Assembly: GCF_030684315.1 (NCBI RefSeq)
Contig: NC_081369.1
Span: 548,828-612,688 of the forward strand
DNA length: 63,861 bases
Direction of reading: 5' to 3'
DNA from: Stegostoma tigrinum
Lineage: Eukaryota
In this document: in pieces, positions 4,783 through 53,927 of the stretch
Layout of the letters: every line of letters begins with the position of its first letter
Numbering within the stretch: position 1 is the stretch's first letter
Made by a program: the position numbers and the translations under genes
Notes under the pieces: model-generated
Seen by the model: the letters and a program-made list of their open reading frames with translations, nothing else
What the model was told of the DNA's origin: nothing
Databases searched by the model: none

Positions 4783-4856
4783 GTAACTCCAAATTGAAGA
4801 CTGGCTCACAGCTCACCTCCAGCCTAAAGCTTGCAGGCTTTACAGAGATCACTGAG
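4783..4856 (+). CDS. CIAPIN1: CIAPIN1 coding exon
   Basis: ccttag|...|gtaaat; GNSKLKTGSQLTSSLKLAGFTEITE (cf. [24 protein letters not shown]); phase 1-0 fits neighbours. Confidence 0.93.
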
Positions 4857-5129
4857 GTAAATAAGTCCACTTCATCTGCCACTACAAATCACCCCAGTCA
4901 GAGGGTGACAGCGACAGCGGAGAGAGCAAGCAGGCCATGTTTGCATTAGACGGATTGGGATTGTGGGGTCGAAAAGCACCCCTGAGGTGGGTGGGGGAAG
5001 AGGGCTGGAGCAGAGAGGGAGGGTGCCAGAAATGGATGAGGAGAAGCCCTGGGGTTATGGTGCTTGGTGGGGAGGTAGGGGAAGAGACGTGGAAAGCTGG
5101 GCTATCAGGGAAGGAAACCCTGACAAATG

Positions 5130-5335
5130 GAGAAACTGGGCAGGTCTGGCAGCATCTGTGGAGAGAGAAACAGAGTTAACATTTTTGGGTCCAATATGAC
5201 CTTTCTCCAGATCAAGGAAGAAGAGTCACTCAAAATATTAACTCCCTATCTGTTCCACAGATGTTGCCAGATTTGCTGAGTTTCTCTGGCATTCTGTGTT
5301 CGTTTCAGACTTCCAGCGTTCGCAGTATTTAGTTA
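5130..5335. mobile_element. Penelope-type inverted terminal remnant
   Basis: Imperfect palindrome ctggcagcatctgtgga...gagttaac / ttaactc...tccacagatgttgccag. Confidence 0.65.
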
Positions 5336-5815
5336 TTGGGGGAATCCCAACTCGGGACTGGCTGCAGACAACTTAGTTTCCAATAACACTAAAGGCTCAG
5401 GCTATTCCTGGTGTTGGACCCAGTGCCATTGGCATCTCAGGCCAGTACGGCCTCATGGCAGAATATGTGGAGAGATGGGGCCCAAGCCTGGGCACATTAC
5501 AGCCCCTGTATTCAACATTCAGCTGCAGGGTCTTCGAGACAAAGCTGCTTGACCTTTGAGATTATCCAAGTGTTCTTGTTCTTCTTTTCGCCTTCACCTG
5601 TAGCAGGGGCACATGTTGTGCAAGGCCACAGACTTGTTGCATTTCTTGGACACCCCCTTTTACCCTTGCAGCAACTCACACCTTACCCAGCTGGCCACTG
5701 TGTTGAGGGTGGATGAAGGCCACGTACGATACTGGGCTACCTCTGCTTCATGTCAGGTTTATTCATTTGGGTGGTAGTGGCAATAACAGAATCCTTGAAT
5801 TCTGCTTCTTCACAG

Positions 5816-5987
5816 ATACAGTCTGACCCGTTAACAGATGAAGAGCTGAATTCTATAAAACAATTTGTTGACTACAAGGGTAATGATTTGACTAAGGTGA
5901 TGTTGAGGGCGAAGAAGCCAGACTTTGAAATTGGGTCATCTGCTCGACTGAAACTGTCGTTTGTCTCGAAATCGAAAGCGGTGGATG
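5816..5987 (+). CDS. CIAPIN1: CIAPIN1 coding exon
   Basis: tcacag|...|gtaagc; IQSDPLTDEELNSIK...AKKPDFEIGSSARLKLSF (conserved KKPxFExGSS); phase 0-1. Confidence 0.95.
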
Positions 5988-6314
5988 GTAAGCATTGCTG
6001 TACTACCTGGGGACAACTTTCGCTAGAGTGTGGTTATTTGCTGTTCTGTGCTGTGGTGGAGGCAGTTAGATATAGCCTGGTCATTGATGCACATATCACT
6101 GGAATTAAATAAAAACACATTTTCTTTTTCTTGTCCGTCTAGCTGCTGACATGGACGGTCCAGCACCACTCCACCTTCCCCAGCAGGACCTGCTGCTGCA
6201 CTCAGTATCTCACCATACATTGTGCAGCACAGCAGAAAATATTACCAATGCTTTCAAAAACACAAAGAGCTCAACAGTTTTAAATGCAGACAACCACCAC
6301 CTAACACTCTCAGG

Positions 6315-6940
6315 ACTTGTACAGCATAGGGTTTGGATGTAGAGTAAAGCTGCCTTTGCACTGTACCCATCAAACACTTCCAGGGCAGAGATAGTACAGG
6401 CTTAGGTACAGAGTAAAGCTACCTTTGCTGTCTTAAACTGAAGGTAAACGAGCCAGTACACTGCCCCATCAAACACTCCAATGATCAGTACAATAGTTAG
6501 ATGCAGGATAAAATGTCCTGTACTACTTTAAACTGACAGGAAAGCTTCCAACACCTTTGGAACTGAAAATAATGCTCCTTTTACATTGTTCCTAGCAAAC
6601 GCAGGTATTGTATGGGATTAGATACCGAGTAAAGTTCCTCCTGCTGTTTTAAACTGAAAGAATAGAGCCGAGCTCCATCTTCTCTTTTAGCCTGAAAGTA
6701 AAAAGCTTTTACTTGTTTAAATTGAAAGTAAAGCTCAATCGACACTGTCCCCATCAAACATTCCCCAGACAGTATCAGCAAGGAGTTACATATTTCCTTT
6801 CTTTTATGCTTCTCTATTTTTTTAAGCTGAAAGTAAAGCTGCCTTTTACGCTATCCACCTCAAACACTCCCAGTACAGGGGCATTAGTGGTTTAGATACA
6901 GAATAAAGCTGCCTCTAGAGTGTCTTCATTAAGCACTCCA
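6315..6940 (+). repeat. Degenerate minisatellite-like repeat
   Basis: Recurring agagtaaagct...cactgtccccatcaaacactccc...ttagatac units; an inverted copy lies at ~13920-13970. Confidence 0.75.
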
Positions 6941-7301
6941 CTCTCTCACGTCTGTCTGAGATACCAAACACTCCTTCCGTGTTGCGCTGATTTACTTGTG
7001 TGTTGTTCAATCTAGATTCCCGTGTTCACAACATTCCTTCCACTACACCGGGGAGAATAATCGCAGACTGGGTGGCTGTTATCGGAGACCTCCACCCAGT
7101 CTGTGGATCACCCTGACCTTCCAGTCGCCTGTGAATGTAATTCTCCAGTTTGCTCCCACATATATGATTGTGGTCAGCTGCACAGTTCCTGGGAAGCACA
7201 ACGTCATCCCCAGGAACAACACCTGATTGCATCTCTTGAGCTCAACTTTGAGTTCAACAACTTCAGACAGTAATCTCTGCCCCACTGCAGGTTAGCTACC
7301 T

Positions 7302-7512
7302 TAGATAACAAAGTGTGGAGCTGGATGAACACAGCAGGCCAAGCAGCATCTTAGGAGCACAAAAGCTGACGTTTCAGGCCTAGACCCTTCATCAGCCCGA
7401 AACGTCAGCTTTTGTGCTCCTAAGATGCTGCTTGGCCTGCTGTGTTCATCCAGCTCCACACTTTGTTATCTCGGATTCTCCTGCATCTGCAGTTCCCATT
7501 ATCTCTGATACA
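7302..7512. mobile_element. Palindromic Penelope terminal-repeat insertion with 13-bp TSD
   Basis: Near-perfect ~75-bp inverted arms; TSD AGGTTAGCT(A/G)CCT at 7289-7301 and 7513-7525. Confidence 0.85.
7366..7395 (-). ncRNA. Minimal hammerhead ribozyme core (Penelope-associated)
   Basis: CUGAUGA-AGGGUCUAGGCCU-GAAAC-GUC on the - strand. Confidence 0.65.
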
Positions 7513-8020
7513 AGGTTAGCTGCCTGGTTGTGTTGCAGCTTTCAGTCTTAATCCTGTTTTCTCATTTTGCTGTTAGACTGTCATTCTGCCATTCACACTT
7601 CCTCTGGGTAGAAGCTTTTATTTCTTTAGTTGTTCCTTTTGCCACTCACTTGAGCTCAGTCCTATCAGCGCTTTAGTCGGCCAGTCTCTGCTATCTCCCT
7701 GCTACCTCAGAACCTCTCTTTTCCATGTTCCCTGTTTCACCAGCATTAAAGCTAAGACATCTCTAACTTAGTGTTGACGAAGGCTCCCAACCTGAAAGGT
7801 TAACTCTGTTTCTATCTTTATCGATGCTGTTAGATTTGCTGAGTATTTTCAGCATTTTACTGTATAGGGTTGGCTCTGTACTGGGTTTGTGCAGCTTGAA
7901 TGTGTAGAAGTTGGTACTGTGACTGTCTACTGCTGCTGGGTCACTGCAGTTGGCCACCAGCTGGCAATGGGTGAGCCATGACTGTGTGTTTAGGTTCATA
8001 CTGGAAATTTGATGTTACAG

Positions 8021-8094
8021 AGAAACCGCAGCTGGACCCCAACACGAAGAAAGCTTGGACCCTGTCAGCCATTGATATGAATGACGACGATGTG
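8021..8094 (+). CDS. CIAPIN1: CIAPIN1 coding exon
   Basis: ttacag|...|gtgaga; EKPQLDPNTKKAWTLSAIDMNDDDV (cf. KLWTLSANDMEDD); phase 1-0. Confidence 0.95.
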
Positions 8095-8341
8095 GTGAGA
8101 TTACCTCTTCTAAACCCCACCTGTTATCCTGTGCTTGAGCTTTTCCGGGGGAGCAGGAATGCCTGGTCCAAACTCCTATCCCTTGAGGCCAAAGTACAGG
8201 GGCCTAAAAATGGTGACGCCCCTCGCTAACCTTTATGGCAGCTATCAGTGCTGTGCCCTCCCCAGTGGCAGGCCACAGCTTGTTCTAAAGCATTCAGTTG
8301 AGCTTGTGGCAATCACCCTCCCCCTCAAGCTAGGAACAGTC

Positions 8342-8430
8342 AGGAATGCCCTGACGTCAGCACTGGCCCAGGAAAGCCCTGACGTCAGCACTCGCCCAGG
8401 AAGGCCCTGACGTCAGCACTGGCCCAGGAA
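8342..8430 (+). repeat. 28-bp tandem repeat x3, each unit with a perfect CRE palindrome
   Basis: aggaa(t/a/g)gccctgacgtcagcact(g/c)gccc; TGACGTCA at 8352, 8380, 8408. Confidence 0.9.
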
Positions 8431-9269
8431 CGCTCAATCTTCTGATTCAGAGGGAAGAGACTTCTGAGTCAATCCGAGCTCAATATCTTTCCTTAGAGAA
8501 GACGCCCAGAGCTGTCCACTGTATTCCAACTGTGATCAGATTTATGCTTTGTATAGTTTCAGCAAAACCTTCCTCCATTCCCTTTATAATAACTAGAGCT
8601 GTGTTTAAATAATTTGGAGTCTATTTGCATAGAGAGCATGGAGAAGCTGGAATTGTTCCTGGAGCAGAGGAAGTTTAATAATACTGCTTCCTGTGACCAC
8701 AGGTATTGATAGAGCAAATGAGAAGGTTGTTTGAACTGGCAGGAGGTTTGGGAACCAAATGAGAGATTTTTAGGATAAATGGCAGACAACCATGGGTGAG
8801 GGTGAGAACAGATTGAATTCCCTTTTGCAAGCTGTGATTCAATAAATAAGAAAATCTTCCATCCTATCCTGTCTGGCATACACCTGCATGGGTTTGAATC
8901 AACCAATTAGTTCTTCAGCATCAAAATGCATTGCAACAGCTCACAGCGGCTAAGAAATGCCCCTCCTACCAGTACTGCCCAAACCTTGATAAGAAAGAAA
9001 TAATCCCACAGTTACTTGCACAAAATGTGGTGTACACTAGGATCATGGCAGAGCTGCAGGGGAAGGAAGGGAGCTGTTTACCTGGGCTACCACCAGACCC
9101 AAAAAACTTGTCATGAAGAGTATCTTTCATAACCAAACAGTGAACATTTGAAGTATCAGAGGGGCTGGAAATACTGTTCTTGGTTCTAATTCATTGAGAA
9201 AGGAAGATTATACTTTGGGAGTATTGTCCACAGACTGTTACACGTACAGCTAGGAATATAGAATTGTAG

Positions 9270-10320
9270 CAATAATAGTAAAATGGACTATTATTTGAAT
9301 GGTGAAAAATTGCAGGCATGCTGCTGTTCAGAGAGACCTGAGTGTCAAAAGAACAAAGAAACTTAGAGCAGAGGAACAGCCCCTTCGGCCCTCCAAGCCT
9401 GCACTGATCCAGATCCTCTATCTAAATCTGTCACCTATTTTCCAAGGATCTGGATCCCTCTGCTCCCTGCCCATTCATGTATCTGTCTAGATACATCTTA
9501 AATGATGCTATTGTGCCTGCCCCTACCACCTCTGCTGGCAACGTGTTTGAGGCACCCACCACCCTCTGCGTAAAGAGCTTTCCATGCATTTCTCCCTTAA
9601 ACTTTTCTCCTCAAGTGTCCTCGTGCATGAATCACACAAAAGTCAGTTTGCGGGTGCAGCAAGTAATTAAGGCTGCAAATAGAGTATTGTCCTTCATTGC
9701 TAGACTGATGGAGGTTAAAAGCAGGGAGGTTATGCTGCAGCTGTGTAGTGTGCTAGTGAGGTCACACCTGGAGTACTGTGTACAGTTTTGGTCTCCTTAC
9801 TTGAGAAAGGATGAACTGGCACTGGAGGGGGTGCTGAGGTGGTTTACTAGGATGATTCCAGAATTGAGAGAGTTGGCCTATGAAGAGAGATTGAGTAGAC
9901 TGGGACTATACTCATTGAAATTTAGAAGAATAGGTGGGGTGGGGGAGTCTTATAGAAACACAAAATTTTGAAGGGAGTAGATGGGTAGAAGCAGGGAGGT
10001 TGTTTCCAACTGCGGGTGAAACTAGAACTAGGGGGCGTAGCCTCAAAATAAAGGGGTGCAGATTTCGCACTGATTTGAGGAGGAACTTCTTGACCCAAAA
10101 GGTTGCGAATCTGAAGAATTCCTTGCCCAGTGAAGCAGTTGAGGCTACCGCATTGAAAGTTTTTAAGGCAAAGATACGTTTTTGAACAGTAAAAGAATAA
10201 GGGTAACAGTGAGTAGGCAGGTAAGTAGAGTTGAGTACATGAAGAGATCAGCCCTGATCCTTATTGAATGGTGGAGCAGACTCAATGGGCCAGATGGCCT
10301 ATTCTTGCCCCTATTTCTTA
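9270..10320 (+). mobile_element. CR1 3' fragment with a nested inverted CR1 tail (~9346-9613)
   Basis: VRSHLEYCVQFWSPYLRKD ORF; nested piece flanked by agtgtc duplication. Confidence 0.85.
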
Positions 10321-10408
10321 TGTATAGGTAAACACTCTGCCTGTGGCACACATAGCCTGCACAATAGGCAGAGCCACAATTGAGCCATCTCTCCCTGCCT
10401 TTCCTTAG

Positions 10409-10527
10409 GATCTTATTGATTCTGATGAACTGCTGGATGAAGATGATTTGAAGAAACCGGATCCCGCCTCGCTGAGAGCTATGGACTGTGGAGACGGCAA
10501 GAAAAAGAAACGGGCCTGTAAGAACTG
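10409..10527 (+). CDS. CIAPIN1: CIAPIN1 coding exon, start of first Fe-S cysteine motif
   Basis: ccttag|...|gtcagt; [39 protein letters not shown](C); phase 0-2. Confidence 0.96.
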
Positions 10528-10648
10528 GTCAGTGTCTCTCACTCCATCAGGTTACAGTAAGAATTGGTCAGTGTCTCACACTGCGTCAGGTTACACTAAG
10601 AACTGCACAGTGTCTCACTTTGACCAGTTCTTCCCAGTGTAACCTGAC
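10519..10648 (+). repeat. 39-bp tandem repeat over the CIAPIN1 splice donor plus an inverted partial copy
   Basis: Units at 10519-10557, 10558-10596 and partial 10597-10618; antisense copy tgaccagttcttcccagtgtaacctgac at 10621-10648. Confidence 0.85.
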
Positions 10649-11083
10649 AATGTCACACACTCCGTCACATTTACACAAGGAAAAACAGTCAGAACTTTGC
10701 AACTTCTCAGGTTAAACTAATAAAAACGGATCCTTATCTCACAGCCCCATCGGAATGAGATCAGGGCATTTGAATGATTCTGCAGCTGTATAAAGGCATG
10801 TTGACTGTGATCATGGATGTATGTAAAGGCACGTTGCATGTAGTTACTGTAGTGTATACTGAAGACCATATTAGGCGTGGTCATAGTGTTGTATAATGTT
10901 GAGTGTGTTTCTGGAGGCATATCAGGGCATGTAGTGTGTTGTTTTCGAGGTATCTCTGTGCATGTTGACAGTGATTCTGGAGGCTTCTTAGGGCATGTTG
11001 AGTGAGGTTACTGATGTATGTTCGACATTTTAACTCTTTTGGTGAGCCTGTTTGAAATGTAGCTGACCATCCCTGTGTTTCAG

Positions 11084-11165
11084 TACATGTGGCCTGGCTG
11101 AAGAACTGGACGGGAAAGGATCCACAGATGTTAAGAAACTGCAGGTGAAATCATCGTGTGGAAGT
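11084..11165 (+). CDS. CIAPIN1: CIAPIN1 coding exon
   Basis: tttcag|...|gtaagt; (C)TCGLAEELDGKGSTDVKKLQVKSSCGS; phase 2-0. Confidence 0.96.
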
Positions 11166-11955
11166 GTAAGTATTAACATGTTGGCAGGAACCTGAACAGA
11201 GCAGCAGCCATCCTGTTAATGTGAAGAGGTTGCCTGAGATCTATTTAAAATGTTGCCAGTGCTTTTTCATCTAACACACTGTCTGAGTTTATCTGGGGAT
11301 CACTGATTCTGCCTCACAGTTGAAAGTATTCCCGAGATACTGCTTATCTATTTGGAACATGCTTGTGCTTCAGTTACCAAGGAAAAACTGCTGAAAGCCA
11401 CATTTGAACTAATAATCTTCACAGTGAGTGGGGCTATGTATTCATCAGCACAATTTTGGCAGTATAGTCACAGGCTTGTCTTTGGTTGGACTCAAAAGCT
11501 TCCTAGCGTTAAGCCCTCACTATGTCTATTTTATTGAGCTCTGCAGCCATGCTCTGTTTATATTCTGATAGTAAAAATAAGGCCCCAGGATGTGAACTGT
11601 GTGTTGACTACACGGTTTACCCCTGTATAGCTAATGAGGGAGTAGTCAACATTATTGATAATAAGACAAGTACATACAAAATAACATTGGAAGAAATATG
11701 TTCATGGAATGTGGGCATTGCTGGTTGGGCCAACATTTCTTGCCCTTCCCTAATTTCCCACAGATAAGGCTTGCTGATGTCTATTTCACATTCCCCTCTC
11801 GCTCTCGCTCCCTCATGTTCACTCTGTTGCGCTCAGGGCCTTCGTTCTCTCTCTCGTGTTCACTCTCATGCTGGCACTTTCGCACGCGCACTGTCTTGTG
11901 CACTCTCTTCCGCTGTCACACTCTTGTGTGTGCTCTCATTGTCACTCTCACTCTC

Positions 11956-12089
11956 NNNNNNNNNNNNNNNNNNNNNNNNNNNNNNNNNNNNNNNNNNNNN
12001 NNNNNNNNNNNNNNNNNNNNNNNNNNNNNNNNNNNNNNNNNNNNNNNNNNNNNNNNNNNNNNNNNNNNNNNNNNNNNNNNNNNNNNNNN
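11956..12089. other. Assembly gap (134 N) within CT-rich low-complexity intron sequence
   Basis: Run of N flanked by ctctc repeats. Confidence 0.99.
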
Positions 12090-12174
12090 CTCTCGCTCCC
12101 TCTTTCCCGTGCCCCCACTCCCAGTCAGTGTATTCCCTTGGTGCTGTTAAGTTTGTTGTTTGTCTTGCCTTTTG

Positions 12175-12445
12175 AACATAGAACATAGAACAGTACAGCA
12201 CAGAACAGGCCCTTCAGCCCACAATGTTGTGCCGACCATTGATCCTCATGTATGCACCCTCAAATTTCTGTGACCATATACATGTCCAGCAGTCTCTTAA
12301 ATGACCCCAATGACCTTGCTTCCACAACTGCTGCTGGCAACGCATTCCATGCTCTCTCAACTCTCTGCGTAAAGAACCTGCCTCTGACATCCCCTCTATA
12401 CTTTCCACCAACCAGCTTAAAACAATGACCCCTCGTGCTAGCCAT
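12175..12445 (-). mobile_element. Young CR1 3' end
   Basis: TRGHCFKL...RFFTQRV ORF, (ttctatg)n tail; similar to 34110-34400. Confidence 0.88.
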
Positions 12446-12490
12446 TTGGGTTCAAGACAACAATAACATTGCTTCCATTGTCTGTTGTAG

Positions 12491-12601
12491 TGCTACCTTG
12501 GTGATGCGTTTCGTTGTGCCAGCTGCCCTTACATGGGGATGCCTGCCTTCAAACCTGGTGAAAAGATCTTGTTAGCTGACCAGACTCTCACCGACGCCTG
12601 A
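12491..12601 (+). CDS. CIAPIN1: CIAPIN1 last coding exon, second Fe-S motif and stop
   Basis: ttgtag| [39 protein letters not shown], the diagnostic Dre2/anamorsin C-terminus. Confidence 0.97.
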
Positions 12602-12929: not shown

Positions 12930-13416
12930 TGAGTGTCACCTTCTGTTGTTGTCCAATAATTTGATGGAGCTGACTCATATTTTTTTCAAATGTGCCTTTT
13001 ACTAGTCAGCTCCTAGCAATCGGTACTGAAAAGGCTGCCTTGTTTATTCATTCATGGGGTGTGGGTGTCACTGGCTGAGTGACACTCACATTATTTATTG
13101 CCATTATAATTGCACTGATGGTGAACTGCCTTGAACAACAGGAGGGAGACCTACAATGCTGTTAAGGATGAAGTTCAAGGAATTTGACCCAGTGACACTG
13201 AAGGGATGGTAATATATTCTGAGTCAGGTTGTAGACCGGCTCCTGACTTGTATTTTGTGGATGGGTTTTGGGAGGTCAGGAGGTGAGTTCCTCGCTGCAG
13301 GATTCCTAGCCTCTGACCTGATCCTTCAGTTGCAGTATTTATGTGACTGGGAGTTGTTTTGGAACAGTTTGCGTGATAATGAGTCATGATTGTCTGCAAA
13401 AGATTGTGCAGCTGCC

Positions 13417-13422
13417 TTTATT
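13417..13422 (-). terminator. Candidate poly(A) signal of chemokine-like locus C
   Basis: TTTATT on + (AATAAA on -), about 270 nt past the exon-3 stop. Confidence 0.45.
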
Positions 13423-13688
13423 GTTTGCTGATAGAGAAACATTCCAGATTATTAAAGTAGCTCAGTTATTGGATATTGAACAAGAAATGAGATAAATAAG
13501 ACAGAAAGGCCAACAGTGAACTAGTTTACCAAGACTGAATCTTGGTAAAGGGATTGTGGCCAGCTCATGTGAGTAGGCAGTGATTCATCGGTTCTCCAGT
13601 GTTATTGTTAACGTGTGAGCCATGACCTTCTGAGTCATGACAAAGTCCACATTTGCTGCTTTGAGCACTTTCTCCATGACTCCTGCAT

Positions 13689-13788
13689 CTAACGCTGCTG
13701 AAACTGTTTCTTCAGAATGTCCAGCGCTTTTTGCATCCACAGTTCCTTTGGGTCAACACAGATCTCCAAACCCCCTGTTGTCTTGAAG
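13689..13788 (-). CDS. Chemokine-like locus C, exon 3 (intact)
   Basis: Polypyrimidine tract ctctttgttctctgctcag|; phase 2; (L)FKTTGGLEICVDPKELWMQKALDILKKQFQQR-TAG, a classic chemokine F-x-T...ICVDP..W helix exon. Confidence 0.88.
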
Positions 13789-14660
13789 CTGAGCAGAGAA
13801 CAAAGAGGTTATAATGTGACGGGAGGTCAGTTTAACACATGGTAGAATCTCCACTGTGAACTGGAATTAGCTACTCTGGTGTCTCCACCATTGAACACCC
13901 ATTTCCTAAGCATTCCTGCAAAGTGTTTGATGGGGACAGTGTAGAAGAAACTTTACTCTGTATCTAATCCTGATCCCTTACAATTCTGCAGATTAGAACA
14001 GTAAACAGTGCAGTCTCACCACGGCCTAGTACTTGTTAGTTATTCTTTCACAGGACTTGGCTAGGCCAGCATTTGTTGCCCACCCCTAATTGCTGTGGGT
14101 CTGGAGTCATGTAGGCCAGACAAGGTAAGGATGGCAGTTTCCTTCCCTGAAGGACATTAGTGTTGCAGTTTTTGTACTCCAACTCACTTGCTATAAAAGC
14201 CAACATTCCATTCTCCTTTACAATTAATATAATTGTGACTGATCCAACTGTACCCTTATTCCACTTTCCTCCCTGAACCCTTGAAGCCGCCACTGATCAG
14301 TACTCTCTGACCTGTTTGTGAATGCTGAGCGATTTGTGTCATTTACATCATGCCTCAGGAGCCACCTAATCCTGTGCGCTGTGCTGACTGTGTACTGGTG
14401 CCCAATGCCTGGGCTATCACTTTTGGCACTTTGGCAAGCCCCATCACGGTTTCACATTCCTGAATGGTGTGTTCAGACCCTTGAAATCCTGAAGATCAGT
14501 ATCATTTTCACCTTAATGAATTGTTTGAGCAGCTTAATACCTGTGATTGAGAGTCTGTGTGAACAAATATGGTTTACTAGCTTGTTCAGTACATTTCCCA
14601 TTTGTTCAGGACCTACAATATGAGCCCAGTGTTCTTCATATCCTGCTACTAACAACTTAC

Positions 14661-14810
14661 AGGACACCAGGGGATGAGCAGTCTGGCATTGCCTTGGAGC
14701 TGTCAGTGTGTCCTTCTTCAGGTACAAGAATGCTCTGAATCGCTGTGGATAAAGAATATTTACAATATTAAAAGTGGTGGAGGATTGTTGAGAGCAATTG
14801 CTTTGGTTGA
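14661..14810 (-). pseudogene. Chemokine-like locus C, exon 2 (degenerate; alternative in-frame acceptor at 14742)
   Basis: Ends ...MPDCSSPGV-ct|gtaagt (C3, phase-2 donor as in chemokines). The acceptor at 14810 gives VNQSNCSQQSSTT (CC apparently mutated to CS) but is out of frame with the 3' end. The acceptor at 14742 gives an 82-nt in-frame exon lacking C1 and C2. Confidence 0.65.
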
Positions 14811-16526
14811 CTGTAAGCAAATGACCTCTGTAATGAAACAGCGCTGGCTTTGAATTTCCAAAATCCTTCACACTTCTGATATATCAGTCATTGCGTCATT
14901 CAGTGTTGGGCTGGGGCGAGGCCACTCAATGTGTCTGCCATTAGTTCAATTTGTCCTTGCAATCTGCAAGTCAGGAAATTCAAACAGATTACAGGATTTT
15001 TGACTATGAAGGAGAAAATGATCAGAGGTCTGGTCATGTAGTTGGAATAGTGTGAACTGAAGTCTTGTCTGGAAAAGTGAGGAATATATTTGGGATGCAT
15101 GAACCAGGTTACAATGCAGATCCATGAGACAATTACAAATTCACGTGAACATTTGCCCCTATTAGCAGAGGCCGCAAATATGACAGTCAGTTGCACTGGT
15201 CCAGGATAAAGCACCAGCTAGATCACAGATGGAGCTCTGACTGCAATTCTGGGTACTGCAACACAGTTTAGAGCTACATTGAACAATAGATCAGATTGGG
15301 GTCACAGGGAGCAACTGGACAGCAAGGGTTAAGGAGGAATGTCTGGATATGTTAGCTTTAAGAAAATGGCTGGACAGGATGGGAAATGTTTCCTTTGGGA
15401 TTAGTATTGTGAGAGGTGATCTGCGATCTCGAGTTGGAAACGTCAGCCTTGGTAATCCTGGATGTTGATTTCACCATCAAGAGGTAGGTTCTGGTCATTA
15501 GGGGTAACGTATAATAATTGAGGGGTGGAGAAGGAAGGAACTTTTTCCTCTTGGGGGCGGGATCAATGACTAGATTAGGGGTCTTAGATTTCAGAGAAGG
15601 GGCAGGAGGTTAAGAGGAGTCGCAAGGAGGAATGTTCTTCACCAGAGGGTGATGCGAATCTGGAACTCTCTGCCTATAAAGGCGGTAGAGACAGATACCC
15701 TCAGAACATTTAGAAAATATTTACAAGCTCACTTGCGATTCTCAGGCATACGAGACTGTGGCTAAAGTGCTGGAAAATGGGATTAGAATAGTTCGGAGGT
15801 TTTGACCGATGCAGACTTAATAGACTGACTGACCTTTTTCTGTGTCATAGACTTCTATGACTGATATCAGTGCTGATGGAAGCTGGAGACTGTACATCCC
15901 CTTAGTCTTCCTGGCACTGATTGTCAGTCTAAATGCTTTACAGATCCAAGTGACCTCGAGCATGGGGTGCCACCGTGGCATCACTGGCAAACCCAATTTC
16001 TGCACTGGGATATGGTCTTGGTGCAGAGACCTGTTAAGTTGTACAGCCTGCTATCAGGTCTGGCACAGCGATAGAAGCTGTTTGAGTGTCTGACTACATA
16101 CAATAGCAGCATTCAGCAAAATACAACAGTCAGCTCTGGGAGCCAATTCCCACCTGAAACTCAAAAATCTCTGTTGTTGCTCCTTTTTTGATGGAGCAGG
16201 CACCCAGAGTCCTGATAGTAAGGGTAACGTCAAAGACTTTGTGGAGACATCGTACATGTATCTTGTTAGATTGAAGGATTGAGAAAGAAATGGGAAAGAG
16301 AAAGACCTGAAATGAAACCAGGTACTGAAAGAGAAATATAGAGGAAAAGAAGACAGGAAAGAGAAGAATCAAAAATGAAACAGTTCTAAATCTGCCAACA
16401 ACTATCGTGCACACTCAGGAGAAAACTGCTGAAAGCACTGTAGTGTGAAAGTCCAATCACTCACATGTAACAATCCTATCTGTAATTCAAAAGGTGTTTA
16501 CATTCCTAATCATCAGATATCAGTAG

Positions 16527-16872
16527 GGCCGGCACGGTGGCTCAATGGTTAGCACTGCTCCTTCCCTGGGTTCAATTAGACCTTTGGGTAACTCCCTGTG
16601 TGGAGTTTGCACATTCTCACTGTGTCTTCATGGGTTTCCTCCAGGTGCTCCGGTTTTCTCCCACAGTCCAAAGATGTGCAGGTTAGGTGGATTGGCCGTG
16701 CTAAATTGCCCGTAGTGTTCAGGGATGCGTAGGTTAAATGGATTAACCATTGGAAATGCTAGGTAACAAGGATGGGGTGCGGTGGGTATCATGGGGGGCT
16801 GAGTCTGGGTGGGATAGTCTTCAGAGGGTCAGAGCAGACTTATTGGACTGAATGGCCTGTTTCCATACTGTA
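16527..16872 (+). mobile_element. HE1-like SINE
   Basis: tRNA head and conserved core as at 1757. Confidence 0.9.
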
Positions 16873-17074
16873 TCGATAGATATGTCGATGGATTTATATC
16901 TAAAATGATATTTGATATGTTAGATGCTAAATTGCCACAAATGAGCTAAATTGTTATACTTCCATTCACTTATAAACGAGGAACACAAGTAAGTCATTCA
17001 ACCCTTCAAGCCTGCTCGACCATTCAATAAGATCATGGCTGATGTGATTTTAACCTCAACTCTATATTCCCATG

Positions 17075-17285
17075 ATAGTAGGAACTGCGATGCTGGAGAA
17101 TCTGAGATAACAAGGTGTAAAGCTGGATGAACATAGCAGGCCCAGCAACATCAGAGGAGCAGGAAAGCTGACGTTTCGGCTCTGGACCCTTCTTCAGAAA
17201 TGGAAGAATCTTCTGAAGAAGGGTCCAGACCCAAAACGTCAGCTTTCCTGCTCCTCTGATGTTATCCAGCTCTACACCTTGTTAT
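17075..17285. mobile_element. Palindromic Penelope terminal-repeat insertion with 15-bp TSD
   Basis: Inverted arms; TSD CTCTATATTCCC(A/G)TG at 17060-17074 and 17286-17300. Confidence 0.85.
17168..17197 (-). ncRNA. Minimal hammerhead ribozyme core
   Basis: CUGAAGA-AGGGUCCAGAGCC-GAAAC-GUC on the - strand; the + arm (17213-17242) has GAAA mutated to AAAA. Confidence 0.6.
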
Positions 17286-18094
17286 CTCTATATTCCCGTG
17301 TATTCCCAATAATATTTCAGCCCATTTTTAAACAAAACTATACACCTCCACTTTAAAAATATTTAAATTGAATCATCACTGGCCACAAGACATCTTTACA
17401 CTGGACAGGAACAGGAACCCCAGCCGATCTCACCGCCTATCTCCACCTCCACCCTCACCCTCACCCTCAACCCAAATATCACTCGACAGTGATCAGAAGC
17501 TTCAGCCCTGGCTAATTTCCTCTGTCTAATGCAGGGATCACTGGACAGTGATCAGGAGCAGGAAACTGGCCAATGTCTTCTTTTTCTAATCCAGGACTCA
17601 CTGGCTCGGTATCTCATTTTGACCTCATCTCTACATTCCTGCATACCCCCCCAATCCTTCATTCCCTTAGTAATCAGGAATCCAGTTTTCTTGACAATGA
17701 TCAAGAATGGGGCTGATCTTAATCTACATCAAGCTCAATCTCTCACCAGGAAAGAAATTTGATCATTTGGAAGGGGCAAAAAAGTAGACTGGAAAAGAAA
17801 CACTGACACACATAGGAATGTTGAGATTGGCCTGAGCTGGAGTTGTGTGTTAAGTGCCCTTGTTTGCTATGATCGATCTGTACTACTCACAAAACAAAGC
17901 TTTTCACTGTACTTATGTACATGTGACTGCAATAAATCAAATTAAATCAAATCAAATCGAGATGGTGAAGACATTGTTCCAGTTCTGTCATTTCCCTTTT
18001 GACCTCAAAGTGCAGACTGGAGAAAAACTCCACAAAATCAAACTCATATAAAAAGCTAAACCATTCCCTGACGATCAAATCCTGTGACATTTAC

Positions 18095-18158
18095 CTGCAC
18101 CATGACTGATCCAGACTATGTCCAGGAGAAGGAGTCCAACAAGAAGGTAATCTTTCAT
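18095..18158 (-). CDS. Chemokine-like locus C, exon 1 (signal peptide)
   Basis: ATG...MKDYLLVGLLLLDIVWISHGA-g|gtaaat; 64 nt, phase 1, typical size and phase for chemokine exon 1; linkage to exons 2-3 is inferred. Confidence 0.7.
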
Positions 18159-18619
18159 AGCTCAGCCTGTGAATAGCAGCAGTGAGTGAGGCAGTGCAGA
18201 TCAGTGTTCTGGGGCTAGCTCCACTCAGCTGTGACTGGAACAGGAATGTGTGATCCTGCTCCTAATGACAACTGGAAAACTTTCAAATCAGGCAACAATG
18301 CAGGAGAGATTTACATTCCAGCAATGATTATACCGAGTACCAGTCTTACTAAAATCGCTGAATGAGAAGCAGTGAGATGTGGAGCTGCCAGATGGGGGTT
18401 TGAAGTACACTGTGACTATGCTGGAGTTTGTACTGAGCAGTTTATCCTTAGACCTGAGTGTATCTGGACGATGCAAATCTAAACTCCAAACACGTAGCTA
18501 GATTAGTCACCAAGGATAATACTGGCACCGGACTGTAGGGTAGAGAGAAACACTGAAACAACAATGCCCATGTCTTCAGAATATATAAGCAATACCAGCC
18601 ATACCTCATTAGCTAATTG

Positions 18620-21681: not shown

Positions 21682-21784
21682 CTAGCTTTCAATCCCCAAT
21701 TTCTTCTCCAGATATGCCACTGCATTTTGAACCCACTTCTCACTGGCTCTCGTACAAATTCTCATCTTCCTCCTGTTTGTGAAG
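21682..21784 (-). CDS. CC chemokine copy A, exon 3
   Basis: ctctttcag|; (I)FTNRRKMRICTRASEKWVQNAVAYLEKKLGIES-TAG, with C4 and conserved WV. Confidence 0.93.
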
Positions 21785-21886
21785 CTGAAAGAGTGAGATG
21801 AGATTATGATTATCAGAGAATCACAGGTATGAGCTCCAAACCTTTCATTTCCACAGACAGTGATAAAAACACTGTAAAACACTCAC

Positions 21887-21995
21887 ATGATAGAGGGAGT
21901 GGAGCAGCCAACCGTCCTGGTGAAGCTTACGAGCCGTTTATGAGGAATGCGAGTGGTCTTAAAGTTCTCACAGCAATCGAAAGTGACAGAGCCGG
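21887..21995 (-). CDS. CC chemokine copy A, exon 2
   Basis: cctcattgcag|...|gtgagt; AGSVTFDCCENFKTTRIPHKRLVSFTRTVGCSTPSI; adjacent CC plus C3; phase 1-2. Confidence 0.94.
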
Positions 21996-22356
21996 CTGCA
22001 ATGAGGAAGAGTAGGAATGGAGATGGTGAATCCTTCAACACATTCACAGCACATTCTCACTGACAGCCTCCTTTTCCTCCATGTTTTCATCCAGAAGCAC
22101 TTTGAGTGTACACAACACAAACAGACCATTCAGCCCACCTGTTCCCTGCCGCAGTTTCAAACCCTCCTGGCACAGAACTCACTCAACCCATCCACATATC
22201 CAGCTATTTATCTCTCCCTCATATGTATATCCAGTCTCTCTTTAAAACATCTTAATATTATTCACTTTCACCACTCCTTCCAGCCTCAGGGTACACTTTC
22301 TAATCACTCTCTAGCTAAAGCATGTTCTACTCCATTCCTAATGGGATTGATTAGGA

Positions 22357-22671
22357 GTTTTTTCCCAGAGTGGGGGACTCAATTACTAGGGGTCATGAGT
22401 TCAAAGTGAGAGGAGGAAAGTTTAAGGGAGATATGCGTGGAAAGTTCTTTACGCAGAGGGTGGTGGGTGCCTGGAATGCATTACTGGCGGAGATGGTAGA
22501 CGCAGACACATTAGCGTCTTTTAAGATATATATGGACAGGTACATGAATGGGCGGGGAGCAAATGGACACAGACCCTTAGAAAATACATGACAGGTTAGG
22601 CAGAGGATCTCAAACGGCACAGGCTTGGAGGGCCGAAGGGCCTGTTCCTGTGCTGTAATTTTCTTTGTTCT
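22357..22671 (+). mobile_element. CR1 3' end insertion specific to copy A intron 1
   Basis: TRGHEFK...KFFTQRVV ORF; TSD TTGATTAGGA at 22347-22356 and 22672-22681; absent near 52510. Confidence 0.88.
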
Positions 22672-22829
22672 TTGATTAGGAATTGTCCTCAGTTCTGCTC
22701 TCTATCACAAGTGGAAACATCATTCCCACACCCACTCTATCAAACCCCTTGGACATATCCAAAACTGCCATCAGGCCTCTTTTCAGACTTCTGACTACTT
22801 GTGGAAAGTCTTGCAGCCATTTCCACACT

Positions 22830-23615
22830 ACAAACGTAAGATGTAGCATTTTGGTAAAGGAAGTCAGGCCAGGACACACAGTTAATAGTAAGTTCCTAGG
22901 GACTGTTATCGGACAAAGAGAACTTGGGTTGCAGTTTTATAGTTCCTTGAAAGTGGAGTTGCAGGCGGACAGGGTGGTGAAGAAGGCTTTTGGTAGACTT
23001 GCTTTTATTGGTCATTGTATTGAGTACAGGAGTTGGTAGGTTATGTTGTGGCTTACAGGACATTGGTTAAGCCAGTTTTGAAATACTGCATGCAATTCTG
23101 GTCTCCCTACTCTTAGAAAGACGTTGTTATTGTAAGGGATCAGAAAGATTTGCAAGGATGTTGCCAGTATTAGAGGCTTTGAGCGACAGGGAGAGGCTGA
23201 ATAGGCTAGGGGTATTTTCCCTGGAATGTCAGAGGCTGAGGGGTTACCTGGCAGAAGTTTAAAAACGAATAAGAGCATGGACAGAGTGATTATTCAAGTT
23301 CTTTTGCTCAAGATAGGCAAGCCCAAAACTGGAGGGCATAGGTTTAAAGTGAAAGGGTAAAGATTTAAAAGGGAAACCAATGGGCAATATTTTCACCTGG
23401 CAGGTGGTGTGTATGTGAAATGGGCTGTAAGAAGAGGTAGTGGAGGCTAGTATAATTACAATATTTAAGTTACATCTGAATAGGTATATGAATGGGAAGT
23501 GTTTAGAGGGACATGGGCCAAATGCTGACAAATGGGACAAGATTAATTTACAATATCTGGTTGGCGTGGACAATATGGACCAAAGTGTCTGTTTCCATAC
23601 TGTATGACTGTATAA
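22830..23615 (+). mobile_element. Older CR1 3' fragment in chemokine intron 1 (counterpart ~52675-53500)
   Basis: QRELG...DRVVKKAFG...EYRSW ORF. Confidence 0.8.
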
Positions 23616-23934
23616 CTAGACATTGAATATTGACAGGGATTGGAAAGACAGAGCAGGACAGATTAACCATCATTCTAGTAAAAACCTAGTACCAGCTTAA
23701 TGGGCTGAGTAGTCTCACATGCTCTCTCTCGCTCTCTGTCTCTCTGTTTTGATGTGATTTTATTTGGCATCATTGGCCCACAGTTTCTGAATGGAGTGAG
23801 GAGGGATCATTACATTAACCCTAATAAGTAACACAAACAGGCAAGGGAAAGCAGCAGGGGCACTGGAACCTGTTCCTGTTTTCCTCATTCTCAAGTTCTG
23901 AGCAAAGATTGGGAAGAAGGAAGGCTTCTCTTAC

Positions 23935-24019
23935 CTGGTGCAGCAGAAACACCATCTTGGATCGAGCAGGTTGCCAGTGCTCCCAGCACAACAGTAGCTA
24001 CACACAGTGCTGTCCTCAT
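23935..24019 (-). CDS. CC chemokine copy A, exon 1 (signal peptide); 98-aa precursor
   Basis: gccaggATG; MRTALCVATVVLGALATCSIQDGVSAAP-g|gtaaga; 85+109+103 nt gives an open 98-aa frame. Confidence 0.93.
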
Positions 24020-51739: not shown

Positions 51740-51944
51740 TCAAGCAGATTCTCCATTCTGCCTGTCTCCCAGTGTAACATCAGTCAGTTCAACACTCTGC
51801 ATGTTTCCTGTGGATTGAAAGGTTGTACTTTCAGTGGGTTCTTCTCTTTCAATCCCCAATTTCTTCTCCAGATATGCCACTGCATTTTGAACCCACTTCT
51901 CACTGGCTCTTGTACAAATTCTCATCTTCCTCCTGTTTGTGAAG
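51740..51944 (-). CDS. CC chemokine copy B, exon 3 with acidic Ser/Thr-rich C-terminal extension
   Basis: Same acceptor as copy A; FTNRRKMRICTRASEKWVQNAVAYLEKKLGIE then REEPTESTTFQSTGNMQSVELTDVTLGDRQNGESA-TGA. Confidence 0.92.
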
Positions 51945-52046
51945 CTGAAAGAGTGAGATGAGATTATTATTATCAGCAAATCACAGGTACAAGCTCCAAA
52001 CCTTTCATTTCCACAGACGATGATAAAAACACCTTGAAACACTCAC

Positions 52047-52155
52047 ATGATGGAGGGAGTGGAGCAGCCAACTGTCCTGGTGAAGCTTACGAGCCGTTTA
52101 TGAGGAATGCGAGTGGTCTTAAAGTTCTCACAGCAATCGATAGTCACAGAGCTGG
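52047..52155 (-). CDS. CC chemokine copy B, exon 2
   Basis: cattgcag|...|gtgagt; ASSVTIDCCENFKTTRIPHKRLVSFTRTVGCSTPSI; 109 nt. Confidence 0.94.
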
Positions 52156-53614
52156 CTGCAATGATGAAGAGTAGGAATGGAGATGGTGAATCCTTGAACA
52201 CATTCACAGCACATTCTCACTGACAGCCTCCTTATCCTCCATGTTTTCCTCCAGAAGCACTTTGAGTGCATACAACGCAAACAGGTCATTCAGCCCGTCT
52301 GATCCCTGCTGAAGCTTCAAACCCCTCTTGCACATGACAGTCACCCCATTCACATATCCTGCTATTACTCACTCCCTCATGTGTATATCCAATTTCTCTT
52401 TCAGACATCTCAATGTTATTCACTTTGACCACTCCTTCCAGTCTCAGGATCTACTTTCTAATCACCTTCTGGGTAAAGGGTGTTTTCCTCAATTCCTACT
52501 GGGATCTTTTAGGAATTGTTTAAATGGATCATTTTGAGTTCTGCTCTCTATCACAAGTAGAAACATCTTTCCTGTACCCACCTTAACAAACCCCTTAGAC
52601 ACCTCCAAAACCTCCATGAATTCTCCTCTCAGACGTTTGTGTACTTCAGGAACATCTCACAGCCATTTCCATAATATAAGTGTGAGGTGGTACATTGTGG
52701 AAAGGCAAATCAGTGCAGGACTTATACAGTTAATGGCACGGTCCTGGGGAGTGTTTCCAAACAAAGAGACCTTGGGGTGCAGTTTCATAGTTCCATGAAA
52801 AAGGAGTCGCAGGTAGACAGGGTAGCGAGGAAGGCATTTGGTATACTGGAAAATTGCCTTTATTGGTCAGTGCATTGAGTATAGGATTTGGGAAGTTATG
52901 TTGCGGCTATACAGGACATTGGTTTTTGGTTTGGCTTCTTCTGGAATACTGCATTCAAGTCTGGTGTCCCAGCTATGGGAAAGATGCTGTTAAACTTGAA
53001 ACAGTTCGGAAAAAATTTGGAACAAATGTGCTAACATGATTGGAGGGTTTGAGCCAGAGGGAGAGGCTTAATAAGCTGGGGCTATTTTTCCCATAATATC
53101 AGAGGCTGAGGGGTGACCTTACACAGGTTTATAAAATCATTAGGGGCATGGATAGGGTGAATAATCAAGTTCTTTTCCCCAGGGTAAGGGGATTCAAAGC
53201 AAGAGGGCATAGGTTTAAACTGAGAGGGAAAGGTTGAAAAGGGAGCTAAAGGGAAAAATTTTCACGCAAAAGTGGTGGCATGCATGGAATGATCTGCCAG
53301 AGGAGGTTATTGAGGCTGATGAAATTACAATGTTTAAAATGATTCTGCATGGATCTATGATTGGAAGGGTTTAGAGGGATATGGGAAATGCTGGCAGTAA
53401 TTTAGTACTAGAGTAATTTAGAATACCTGGTCAGCATGGACAAATTGGATGGAAGGGTCTGCTTCCATGCTAAACATCTCTGTTACTCTCTGACTCCATG
53501 ACATGAAGGTCAAAATTGACAGGGATTGGACAGATAGAGCAAGACAGATGAACCAATTGAATCACTCTGGTAAAGTGCTTGTACCAACTTGATGGGCTGA
53601 GTGGTCTCACACTT

Positions 53615-53645
<31 letters not shown>

Positions 53646-53842
53646 GTTGTGTTTCTATTTGGAATCATTGGCCTACAGTTTCTGAATGGAGTGAGGAGCA
53701 ATCTTTACATTAACGCTAAGTAACACAACATTAAGTTACACAAACAGGCGAGGGCAACCAGCAGGGGCACTGGAACCTGTTCCTGTTTTCCTCACTCTCA
53801 AGTTCTGAGCAAAGATTGGGAAGAAGGAAGCCTCTCTCTTAC

Positions 53843-53927
53843 CTGGTGCAGCAGCAACACCATCCTGGATCGAGCAGATTGCCAGTGCTCCCAGCACAAC
53901 AGTAGCTACACACAGTGCTGTCCTCAT
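53843..53927 (-). CDS. CC chemokine copy B, exon 1 (signal peptide); 132-aa precursor
   Basis: MRTALCVATVVLGALAICSIQDGVAAAP-g|gtaaga; 85+109+205 nt open frame. Confidence 0.93.

Follow-up and report, generated by a model that had tools for sequence, protein, structure and literature searches.

A conserved chemokine-like gene of elasmobranchs whose two-cysteine pattern matches no described class

The 63,861-nucleotide (nt) stretch of Stegostoma tigrinum DNA analysed here (contig NC_081369.1, positions 548,828 to 612,688; hereafter the window) contains, at 13689..18158 of the minus strand, a chemokine-like gene without the adjacent cysteine pair that defines CC chemokines. The question raised by this locus is whether the gene is the decaying remnant of a CC chemokine gene or encodes a protein that makes do with the third and fourth canonical cysteines (Cys3 and Cys4). 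An earlier sequence-only reading had offered both options and preferred decay. The evidence collected here indicates that this is a real, conserved elasmobranch gene, not a pseudogene, whose cysteine pattern lies outside the known chemokine classes. That it is functional without a CC motif is held to be nearly certain, and it probably represents a chemokine class that works but had so far gone unnoticed.

The three exons were confirmed at the coordinates given in the earlier reading, donors and acceptors included (Table 1), and their signals are far beyond chance. The introns are in phase 1 and phase 2, exon 1 encodes a hydrophobic stretch predicted to be a signal peptide, and the exon 2 donor directly follows position 14661. 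Two acceptors had been proposed for exon 2, and both behave as described: acceptor 14810 gives a 150-nt exon that throws exon 3 out of frame, while acceptor 14742 gives an 82-nt exon and an open frame of 81 amino acids with cysteines at residues 43 and 59 only. The 109-nt length reported for exon 2 of the paralogues was also reproduced. In the 82-nt form, exon 2 provides only 21 codons ahead of Cys3, and the mature product is predicted to have 60 residues and to be secreted. Exon 3 matched the Pfam IL8 profile (23.3 bits; cut-off 21.3), and its best PDB matches by sequence were CCL2 and CCL8. Searches of the S. tigrinum genome returned one match to the exon 2 DNA and one strong match to exon 3, with no second copy of the gene, which appears to be single-copy as far as these searches can see.

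Four runs of other organisms (X14, X16, X19 and X20) were compared with window positions 13300-18400; the contigs derived from them give no expression level. The joint 13788|14661 was present in spliced contigs of X14, X16 and X20, which come from three organisms; X19 yielded an unspliced, low-depth piece at exon 3 only. For X14 and X16 the joint to exon 1 was also listed, with an exon-1 end six nt longer and in frame. Joints, depths and record offsets all place the length of exon 2 at exactly 82 nt in the three spliced cases: the depths stop at 14742-14745, and the offsets decompose as 217 = 117+17+82+1 (X14), 154 = 54+17+82+1 (X16) and 127 = 44+82+1 (X20). The letters ahead of exon 3 (117+17+82, 54+17+82 and 44+82) leave no space for an additional exon. 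The check suggested earlier, a search for the junction 14661>13788, therefore had a positive outcome in three other organisms, and the exon used is the short one that starts at 14742, not that starting at 14810. The two exon-2 differences listed among the relatives are both silent (131 further table rows lie beyond those listed). When the long exon-2 frame (14811-14662) was used as a query, no homologue was found among longer proteins, which counts only weakly.

Orthologues were identified in 15 named species of shark, skate and sawfish (carpet sharks, basking shark, houndshark, catsharks, horn shark, sawshark, sevengill shark, sawfish and two skates), all of them carrying automatic names (C-C motif chemokine 18-like, 4-like or 8-like, or simply hypothetical). 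Most rows of this two-cysteine family are predicted gene models, and one RefSeq model (P0015) is letter-for-letter identical to the 81-residue spliced product of the window. A protein search with exon 3 gave nine matches (eight of them inspected), corresponding to four family members and five multi-domain chemokine models; two further searches gave 7 and 13 matches, 12 of the 13 from the profile search being family members. No holocephalan or bony-fish member came up in these protein searches, whose limited sensitivity makes the absence a weak one. Cys3 and Cys4 are separated by 15 residues in 16 of 16 rows, none of which has a cysteine in the 22 residues before Cys3, and the mature part contains exactly two cysteines in all 11 rows counted. 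Both cysteines, W66, Q68-L71, L74-K76 and F78 are invariant in the 15 rows compared. The Pfam IL8 match scores 33.2 bits and spans positions 26-59 of the 60 in the profile, and all 15 rows match. Identity to the batoid sequences is 0.70-0.75 in the hairpin and helix versus 0.26 in the N-terminal tail, which is 20% acidic and is six residues shorter in catsharks; the mature length ranges from 55 to 61 residues across the family. The net charge of family members lies between -3 and +1, whereas 26 rows of canonical shark chemokines, taken from the first cysteine onwards, range from -1 to +12 with a median of 6.

The chemokine classes described in the literature consulted are CXC, CC, CX3C, XC and zebrafish CX (PMC3568907, PMC4690017, PMC2416438, PMC1082905 Table 1, PMC11751857). 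Each of the five retains at least one front cysteine (PMC3568907, PMC2416438), and the two-cysteine family has the defining cysteine pattern of none of them. Of the features of CC chemokines, the adjacent Cys1-Cys2 pair 21-25 residues before Cys3 is found in none of the 16 rows; the Cys3-X15-Cys4 spacing with a tryptophan seven residues after Cys4 is found in all 16, this tryptophan being the invariant W66, and the three coding exons are those typical of CC genes (PMC1082905). The CC chemokines of the CIAPIN1 locus share the three-exon structure, the intron phases (1 and 2), the Cys3-X15-Cys4 spacing, the tryptophan at Cys4+7 and the Pfam IL8 match, while the shark family differs from them in having no CC pair, about nine fewer exon-2 codons, no predicted strand β1 and a near-neutral charge. 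The XC chemokines (XCL1/XCL2, lymphotactin) also have two cysteines in the mature chain, and are secreted chemokine-domain proteins, as is predicted for the shark family. However, XCL1 keeps Cys2 and Cys4 (CX36C; PMC1082905 Table 1), and with them one canonical disulfide, whereas the shark family keeps Cys3 and Cys4, which are never canonical partners; the earlier expectation that the pattern would differ from XC is borne out by the X15 spacing. The zebrafish CX chemokines (CXL-chr12a, 19a, 24a and 24b) resemble the family in keeping the third and fourth cysteines, and were tandem-duplicated from CC neighbours. They have one front cysteine, three extra cysteines and, in the chr24 cluster, five exons, and have been reported from zebrafish alone (PMC2416438), whereas the shark family has neither front nor extra cysteines, has three exons, and is found in sharks and batoids. 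The RefSeq elasmobranch models called C-C motif chemokine 18-like, 4-like or 8-like (e.g. XP_048402991.1) are these same proteins, their automatic names implying a CC motif that is absent.

These data bear directly on whether the gene is decaying. A pseudogene with an exon 2 broken by an insertion would account for the out-of-frame acceptor 14810 and for the CC look-alike upstream of the exon, and support for expression does come from other organisms, not from S. tigrinum RNA. Against this stand 15 species in which the frame is open and the core invariant, the use of the short exon in three organisms and the silent nature of both listed exon-2 differences. Neither frame disruption in the spliced form nor lost conservation was found, and decay is largely refuted, its probability being judged very small. 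An annotation or assembly artefact, in which a CC-bearing exon exists but was missed, is considered equally improbable: most family rows are predicted models and the read evidence on exon 2 comes from other organisms, but three independent spliced contigs leave no space for such an exon and the independent assemblies of 15 species are concordant. The earlier preference for decay is not supported, since the family common to sharks and batoids had the short exon from the outset, and the bolder option, an 81-residue chemokine with Cys3 and Cys4 only, is the one that the spliced contigs and orthologues uphold. The aspartate in the hydrophobic region of the signal peptide, taken before as a sign of decay, is a family trait (aspartate or glutamate in 7 of 15 rows at that column). 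The proposed 41-nt insertion does not hold as a recent event or one private to the S. tigrinum genome; as an ancient origin it is a possibility. Nor is the gene a near duplicate of the two CC paralogues in the window, with neither of which blastn or tblastn gave a cross-match. The CC look-alike exists, with borderline statistical support. It is a nine-residue resemblance, at 14799-14773, to the CC segment of the paralogue, the best of 3326 intron-1 nine-mers (score 19) but picked post hoc. At the DNA level it shares 16 of 27 nt with the paralogue, a value reached by 3 of 3326 positions, but in local DNA alignment it scores below 267 of 289 intron windows, and it is also the top match for the CC segment of an unrelated chemokine. 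Its status as a remnant of the lost segment is therefore borderline.

Structure prediction of the 81-residue product, suggested earlier as a check, returned a confident β2-β3-helix core without β1. AlphaFold models of the whole protein and of the mature part alike showed two strands and a 16-residue helix at a pLDDT (predicted local distance difference test) of 87-89. Mature residues 1-17 (pLDDT <50) form a predicted disordered acidic tail, while the block 21-30 around Cys3 has a pLDDT of 87. Aromatic residues are usual in β1; here they are missing because the tail is only 1% aromatic. The prediction is that strand β1 and the N-loop have been lost and the β2-β3-helix core kept. The top Foldseek rows were chemokines over some 30-35 columns, none at E <= 0.001; an Atlas search gave chemokine clusters only, under 0.9; and a wide structural search with the mature model returned one unrelated row (Z 2.2), uninformative on the fold. 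A homodimer prediction made without an alignment scored 0.01 and gives no verdict.

The loss of the front cysteines raises the question of what Cys3 and Cys4 do. Unpaired cysteines are seldom retained in secreted proteins. The canonical disulfides join Cys1 to Cys3 and Cys2 to Cys4 (PMC2416438). As both partners have been lost while Cys3 and Cys4 are invariant, the pairing of these two with each other is the most likely arrangement, and an intrachain bond stapling the hairpin is modestly favoured. Less likely, though possible, is that they link chains; the specific form of this proposal, in which the β1-less sheet is completed by a second chain, either in a covalent dimer or in a heterodimer with a neighbouring chemokine, as in the alternative fold of XCL1, is considered somewhat less probable again. 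It would make sense of the hydrophobic face that a two-stranded hairpin and helix appear to leave exposed in the model, and of the invariant helix surface residues, and fold switching in XCL1 is enabled by the loss of one disulfide (PMC11751857); the models, on the other hand, place the Cys3 segment confidently inside one chain. As to function, the protein would modulate the chemokine network instead of being a standard disulfide-anchored agonist: with its conserved helix and its acidic tail it would bind to partner chemokines or to a CCR-type receptor from outside. A modulator rather than a plain agonist is put at even chances, and is favoured because conservation lies in the hairpin and helix, not in the receptor-activating N-terminal tail, and because the disulfide hotspot is absent: the contacts conserved between chemokines and their receptors cluster around the disulfides (PMC12435897), a region that this family has lost. 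The same gene might instead encode a direct agonist of G protein-coupled receptors, able to enter a CCR4- or CX3CR1-type receptor, an option given about one half the weight of the former. The backbone ties the tail to Cys3, placing it where the Cys1-Cys3 bond holds the canonical N terminus; in every row the mature chain begins with a hydrophobic stretch; the position next to CIAPIN1 is that of CCL22-CX3CL1-CCL17, and the receptors listed for elephant shark include one of the CCR4 group (PMC3568907 supplement file 6); and zebrafish CXL-chr24a, with one front cysteine missing, is a leukocyte attractant (PMC2416438). Agonism fits poorly with a tail that is the least conserved part of the protein and varies in length, and with the loss of the hotspot for receptor recognition. 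Taken as a whole, an intact three-exon gene of sharks and batoids for a 60-residue 'half chemokine', in which a Cys3-Cys4 bond replaces the two canonical disulfides and which acts as a modulator, is the account considered reasonably probable.

Several observations weigh against this account. Expression in S. tigrinum itself rests on contigs of relatives and a predicted RefSeq model, and X14, X16 and X20 are labelled as RNA on a software guess, although their spliced joints speak for RNA. The Cys3-Cys4 bond and the modulator role are both inferences. The predicted template modelling score was low (0.35 and 0.41) with 12-13 sequences in the alignments, and β1 could form in reality. Three rows have a cysteine at position 16 of the predicted signal peptide. 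Two Heterodontus isoforms, P0003 (X2) and P0016 (X1), have another 5′ end with a CC pair about 40 residues before Cys3; they were excluded from the cysteine census, lack a clear signal peptide, and are possibly intracellular forms or annotation noise, isoform X3 of the same gene having a normal leader. As regards the origin discussed below, the sister relation to a five-copy CC family is weak (85/67), another chemokine (L007, 28.4 bits) scores within the range of the CC neighbours against the family profile, and exon 3 alone is nearer to other chemokines than to the neighbours.

The family probably derives from neighbouring CC genes. In a tree of 37 rows and 65 columns, from which seven false rows starting at intronic cysteine pairs had been removed, the two-cysteine family formed one clade (100/99) with a long branch, on the CC side and grouped with the neighbours on C19, the contig of the cluster (86/87). 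The CC neighbours also gave the top scores against the family profile (31.0-28.2 bits), and the alignment of exon 2 with that of the neighbour beat 998 of 1000 codon shuffles. The simplest account would be a duplication of an adjacent CC gene before the shark-batoid split, after which the exon-2 start moved past the CC codons; the orphaned Cys3 and Cys4 would have been retained because they pair with each other. In Mustelus, the leader of the canonical CC neighbour P0024 equals that of family member P0010 at 22 of the first 23 residues. P0024 is orthologous to CC genes A and B of the window, whose exon 1 differs, which points to a duplicated, converted or shared first exon.

No description of a Cys3/Cys4-only chemokine family was found in the literature covered, which did not include subscription journals, so an earlier description is possible. 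Shark chemokine cloning papers reportedly appeared in such journals. The word 'shark' does not occur in the accessible part of PMC10792014, that of PMC10529500 mentions only Ccl20, and none of three family or neighbour motifs occurs in the 12 supplements of PMC3568907 that could be read. A sixth structural class of chemokines, as old as the shark-ray split, without N-terminal cysteines and β1, with Cys3 rewired to Cys4 and acting as a decoy or modulator, is put forward tentatively, its chances falling slightly short of even. If this is true, it would be a minimal hairpin-helix chemokine that has neither canonical disulfide and is a naturally occurring decoy or modulator. A family that lost both front cysteines and then persisted for some 250-300 million years would offer, beside the metamorphic XCL1, a natural experiment on the requirements of the chemokine fold and on whether its core works without the disulfide hotspot read by receptors. 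A protein of 60 residues can be synthesised, which brings its disulfide pairing, fold and activity within reach of direct tests; in databases the family is at present wrongly labelled CCL18-, CCL4- or CCL8-like.

Table 1. Features of the two-cysteine chemokine gene and its surroundings (window positions unless a locus is given)
Feature	Position	Strand	Remarks
Coding exon 1, predicted signal peptide	18095..18158	-	64 nt = 21 codons + 1 nt; GT, phase-1 donor; in spliced contigs of X14, X16, X20; presumed cleavage site
Exon 2 as used	14661..14742	-	82 nt; acidic tail and Cys3 (codon 14680-14678); without CC motif
Coding part of exon 3	13689..13788	-	End of β2, β3 with Cys4 (codon 13760-13758), Trp at Cys4+7, C-terminal helix, stop
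3′ untranslated region	13417..13688	-	AATAAA at 13422-13417 near the end, putatively used; parts covered by X14, X16, X20 contigs
Intron-1 end	14743..14810	-	Unused out-of-frame acceptor 14810; possible eroded CC-segment remnant 14799-14773
CIAPIN1 (anamorsin) exons	4785..12598	+	Tail to tail with the chemokine gene; Pfam Anamorsin_N 4785-4895, 5759-5986; Pfam CIAPIN1 12491-12598, 55.9 bits
Canonical CC chemokine A	21682..24019	-	Exons 24019-23935, 21995-21887, 21784-21682
Canonical CC chemokine B	51846..53927	-	Exons 53927-53843, 52155-52047, from 51944
Septin exons	L049:2062-2193 and L050:1696-1863	-	Pfam scan

The gene adjoins CIAPIN1, and septin exons lie beyond the chemokine cluster on the side away from CIAPIN1; in the Pfam scan, 4 of 121 candidate exons matched. 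The CCL22-CX3CL1-CCL17 locus, or CCL33 locus of teleosts, has the same CIAPIN1 neighbourhood with septin exons on the far side: human CCL22, CX3CL1 and CCL17 adjoin CIAPIN1, and zebrafish SEPT7B and CCL33ab are on the CIAPIN1 chromosome (PMC3568907 supplement file 6). For CCL17 the agreement with the shark gene is by position only. The placement of the gene suggests that the CIAPIN1-linked locus, also the source of the altered cysteine pattern of CX3CL1, has repeatedly tried new arrangements.

The CC neighbour is present in five near-identical copies (94-100% nt identity) at G000:C19:570509-682203, genes A and B of the window among them, three on the minus and two on the plus strand, and its Cys4 region lacks the usual proline. 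Two further CC genes of another subfamily were found in the same cluster (G000:C19:712347-712466 and 740204-740595). About 124 kb on the CIAPIN1 side of the cluster consists of N. A regular-expression scan yielded no usable promoter motifs. Elsewhere, at G000:C17:16.16-16.21 Mb, there were three CC exon-2 matches (L004, L008 and L010) for which a scripted search found no exon 3; L010 has a stop within exon 2 and may be a pseudogene. The 3′ end of CIAPIN1 lies within about 1 kb of that of the chemokine gene, and near 10500-10620, within CIAPIN1, a short repeated unit follows an exon donor and echoes the last codons of the exon.

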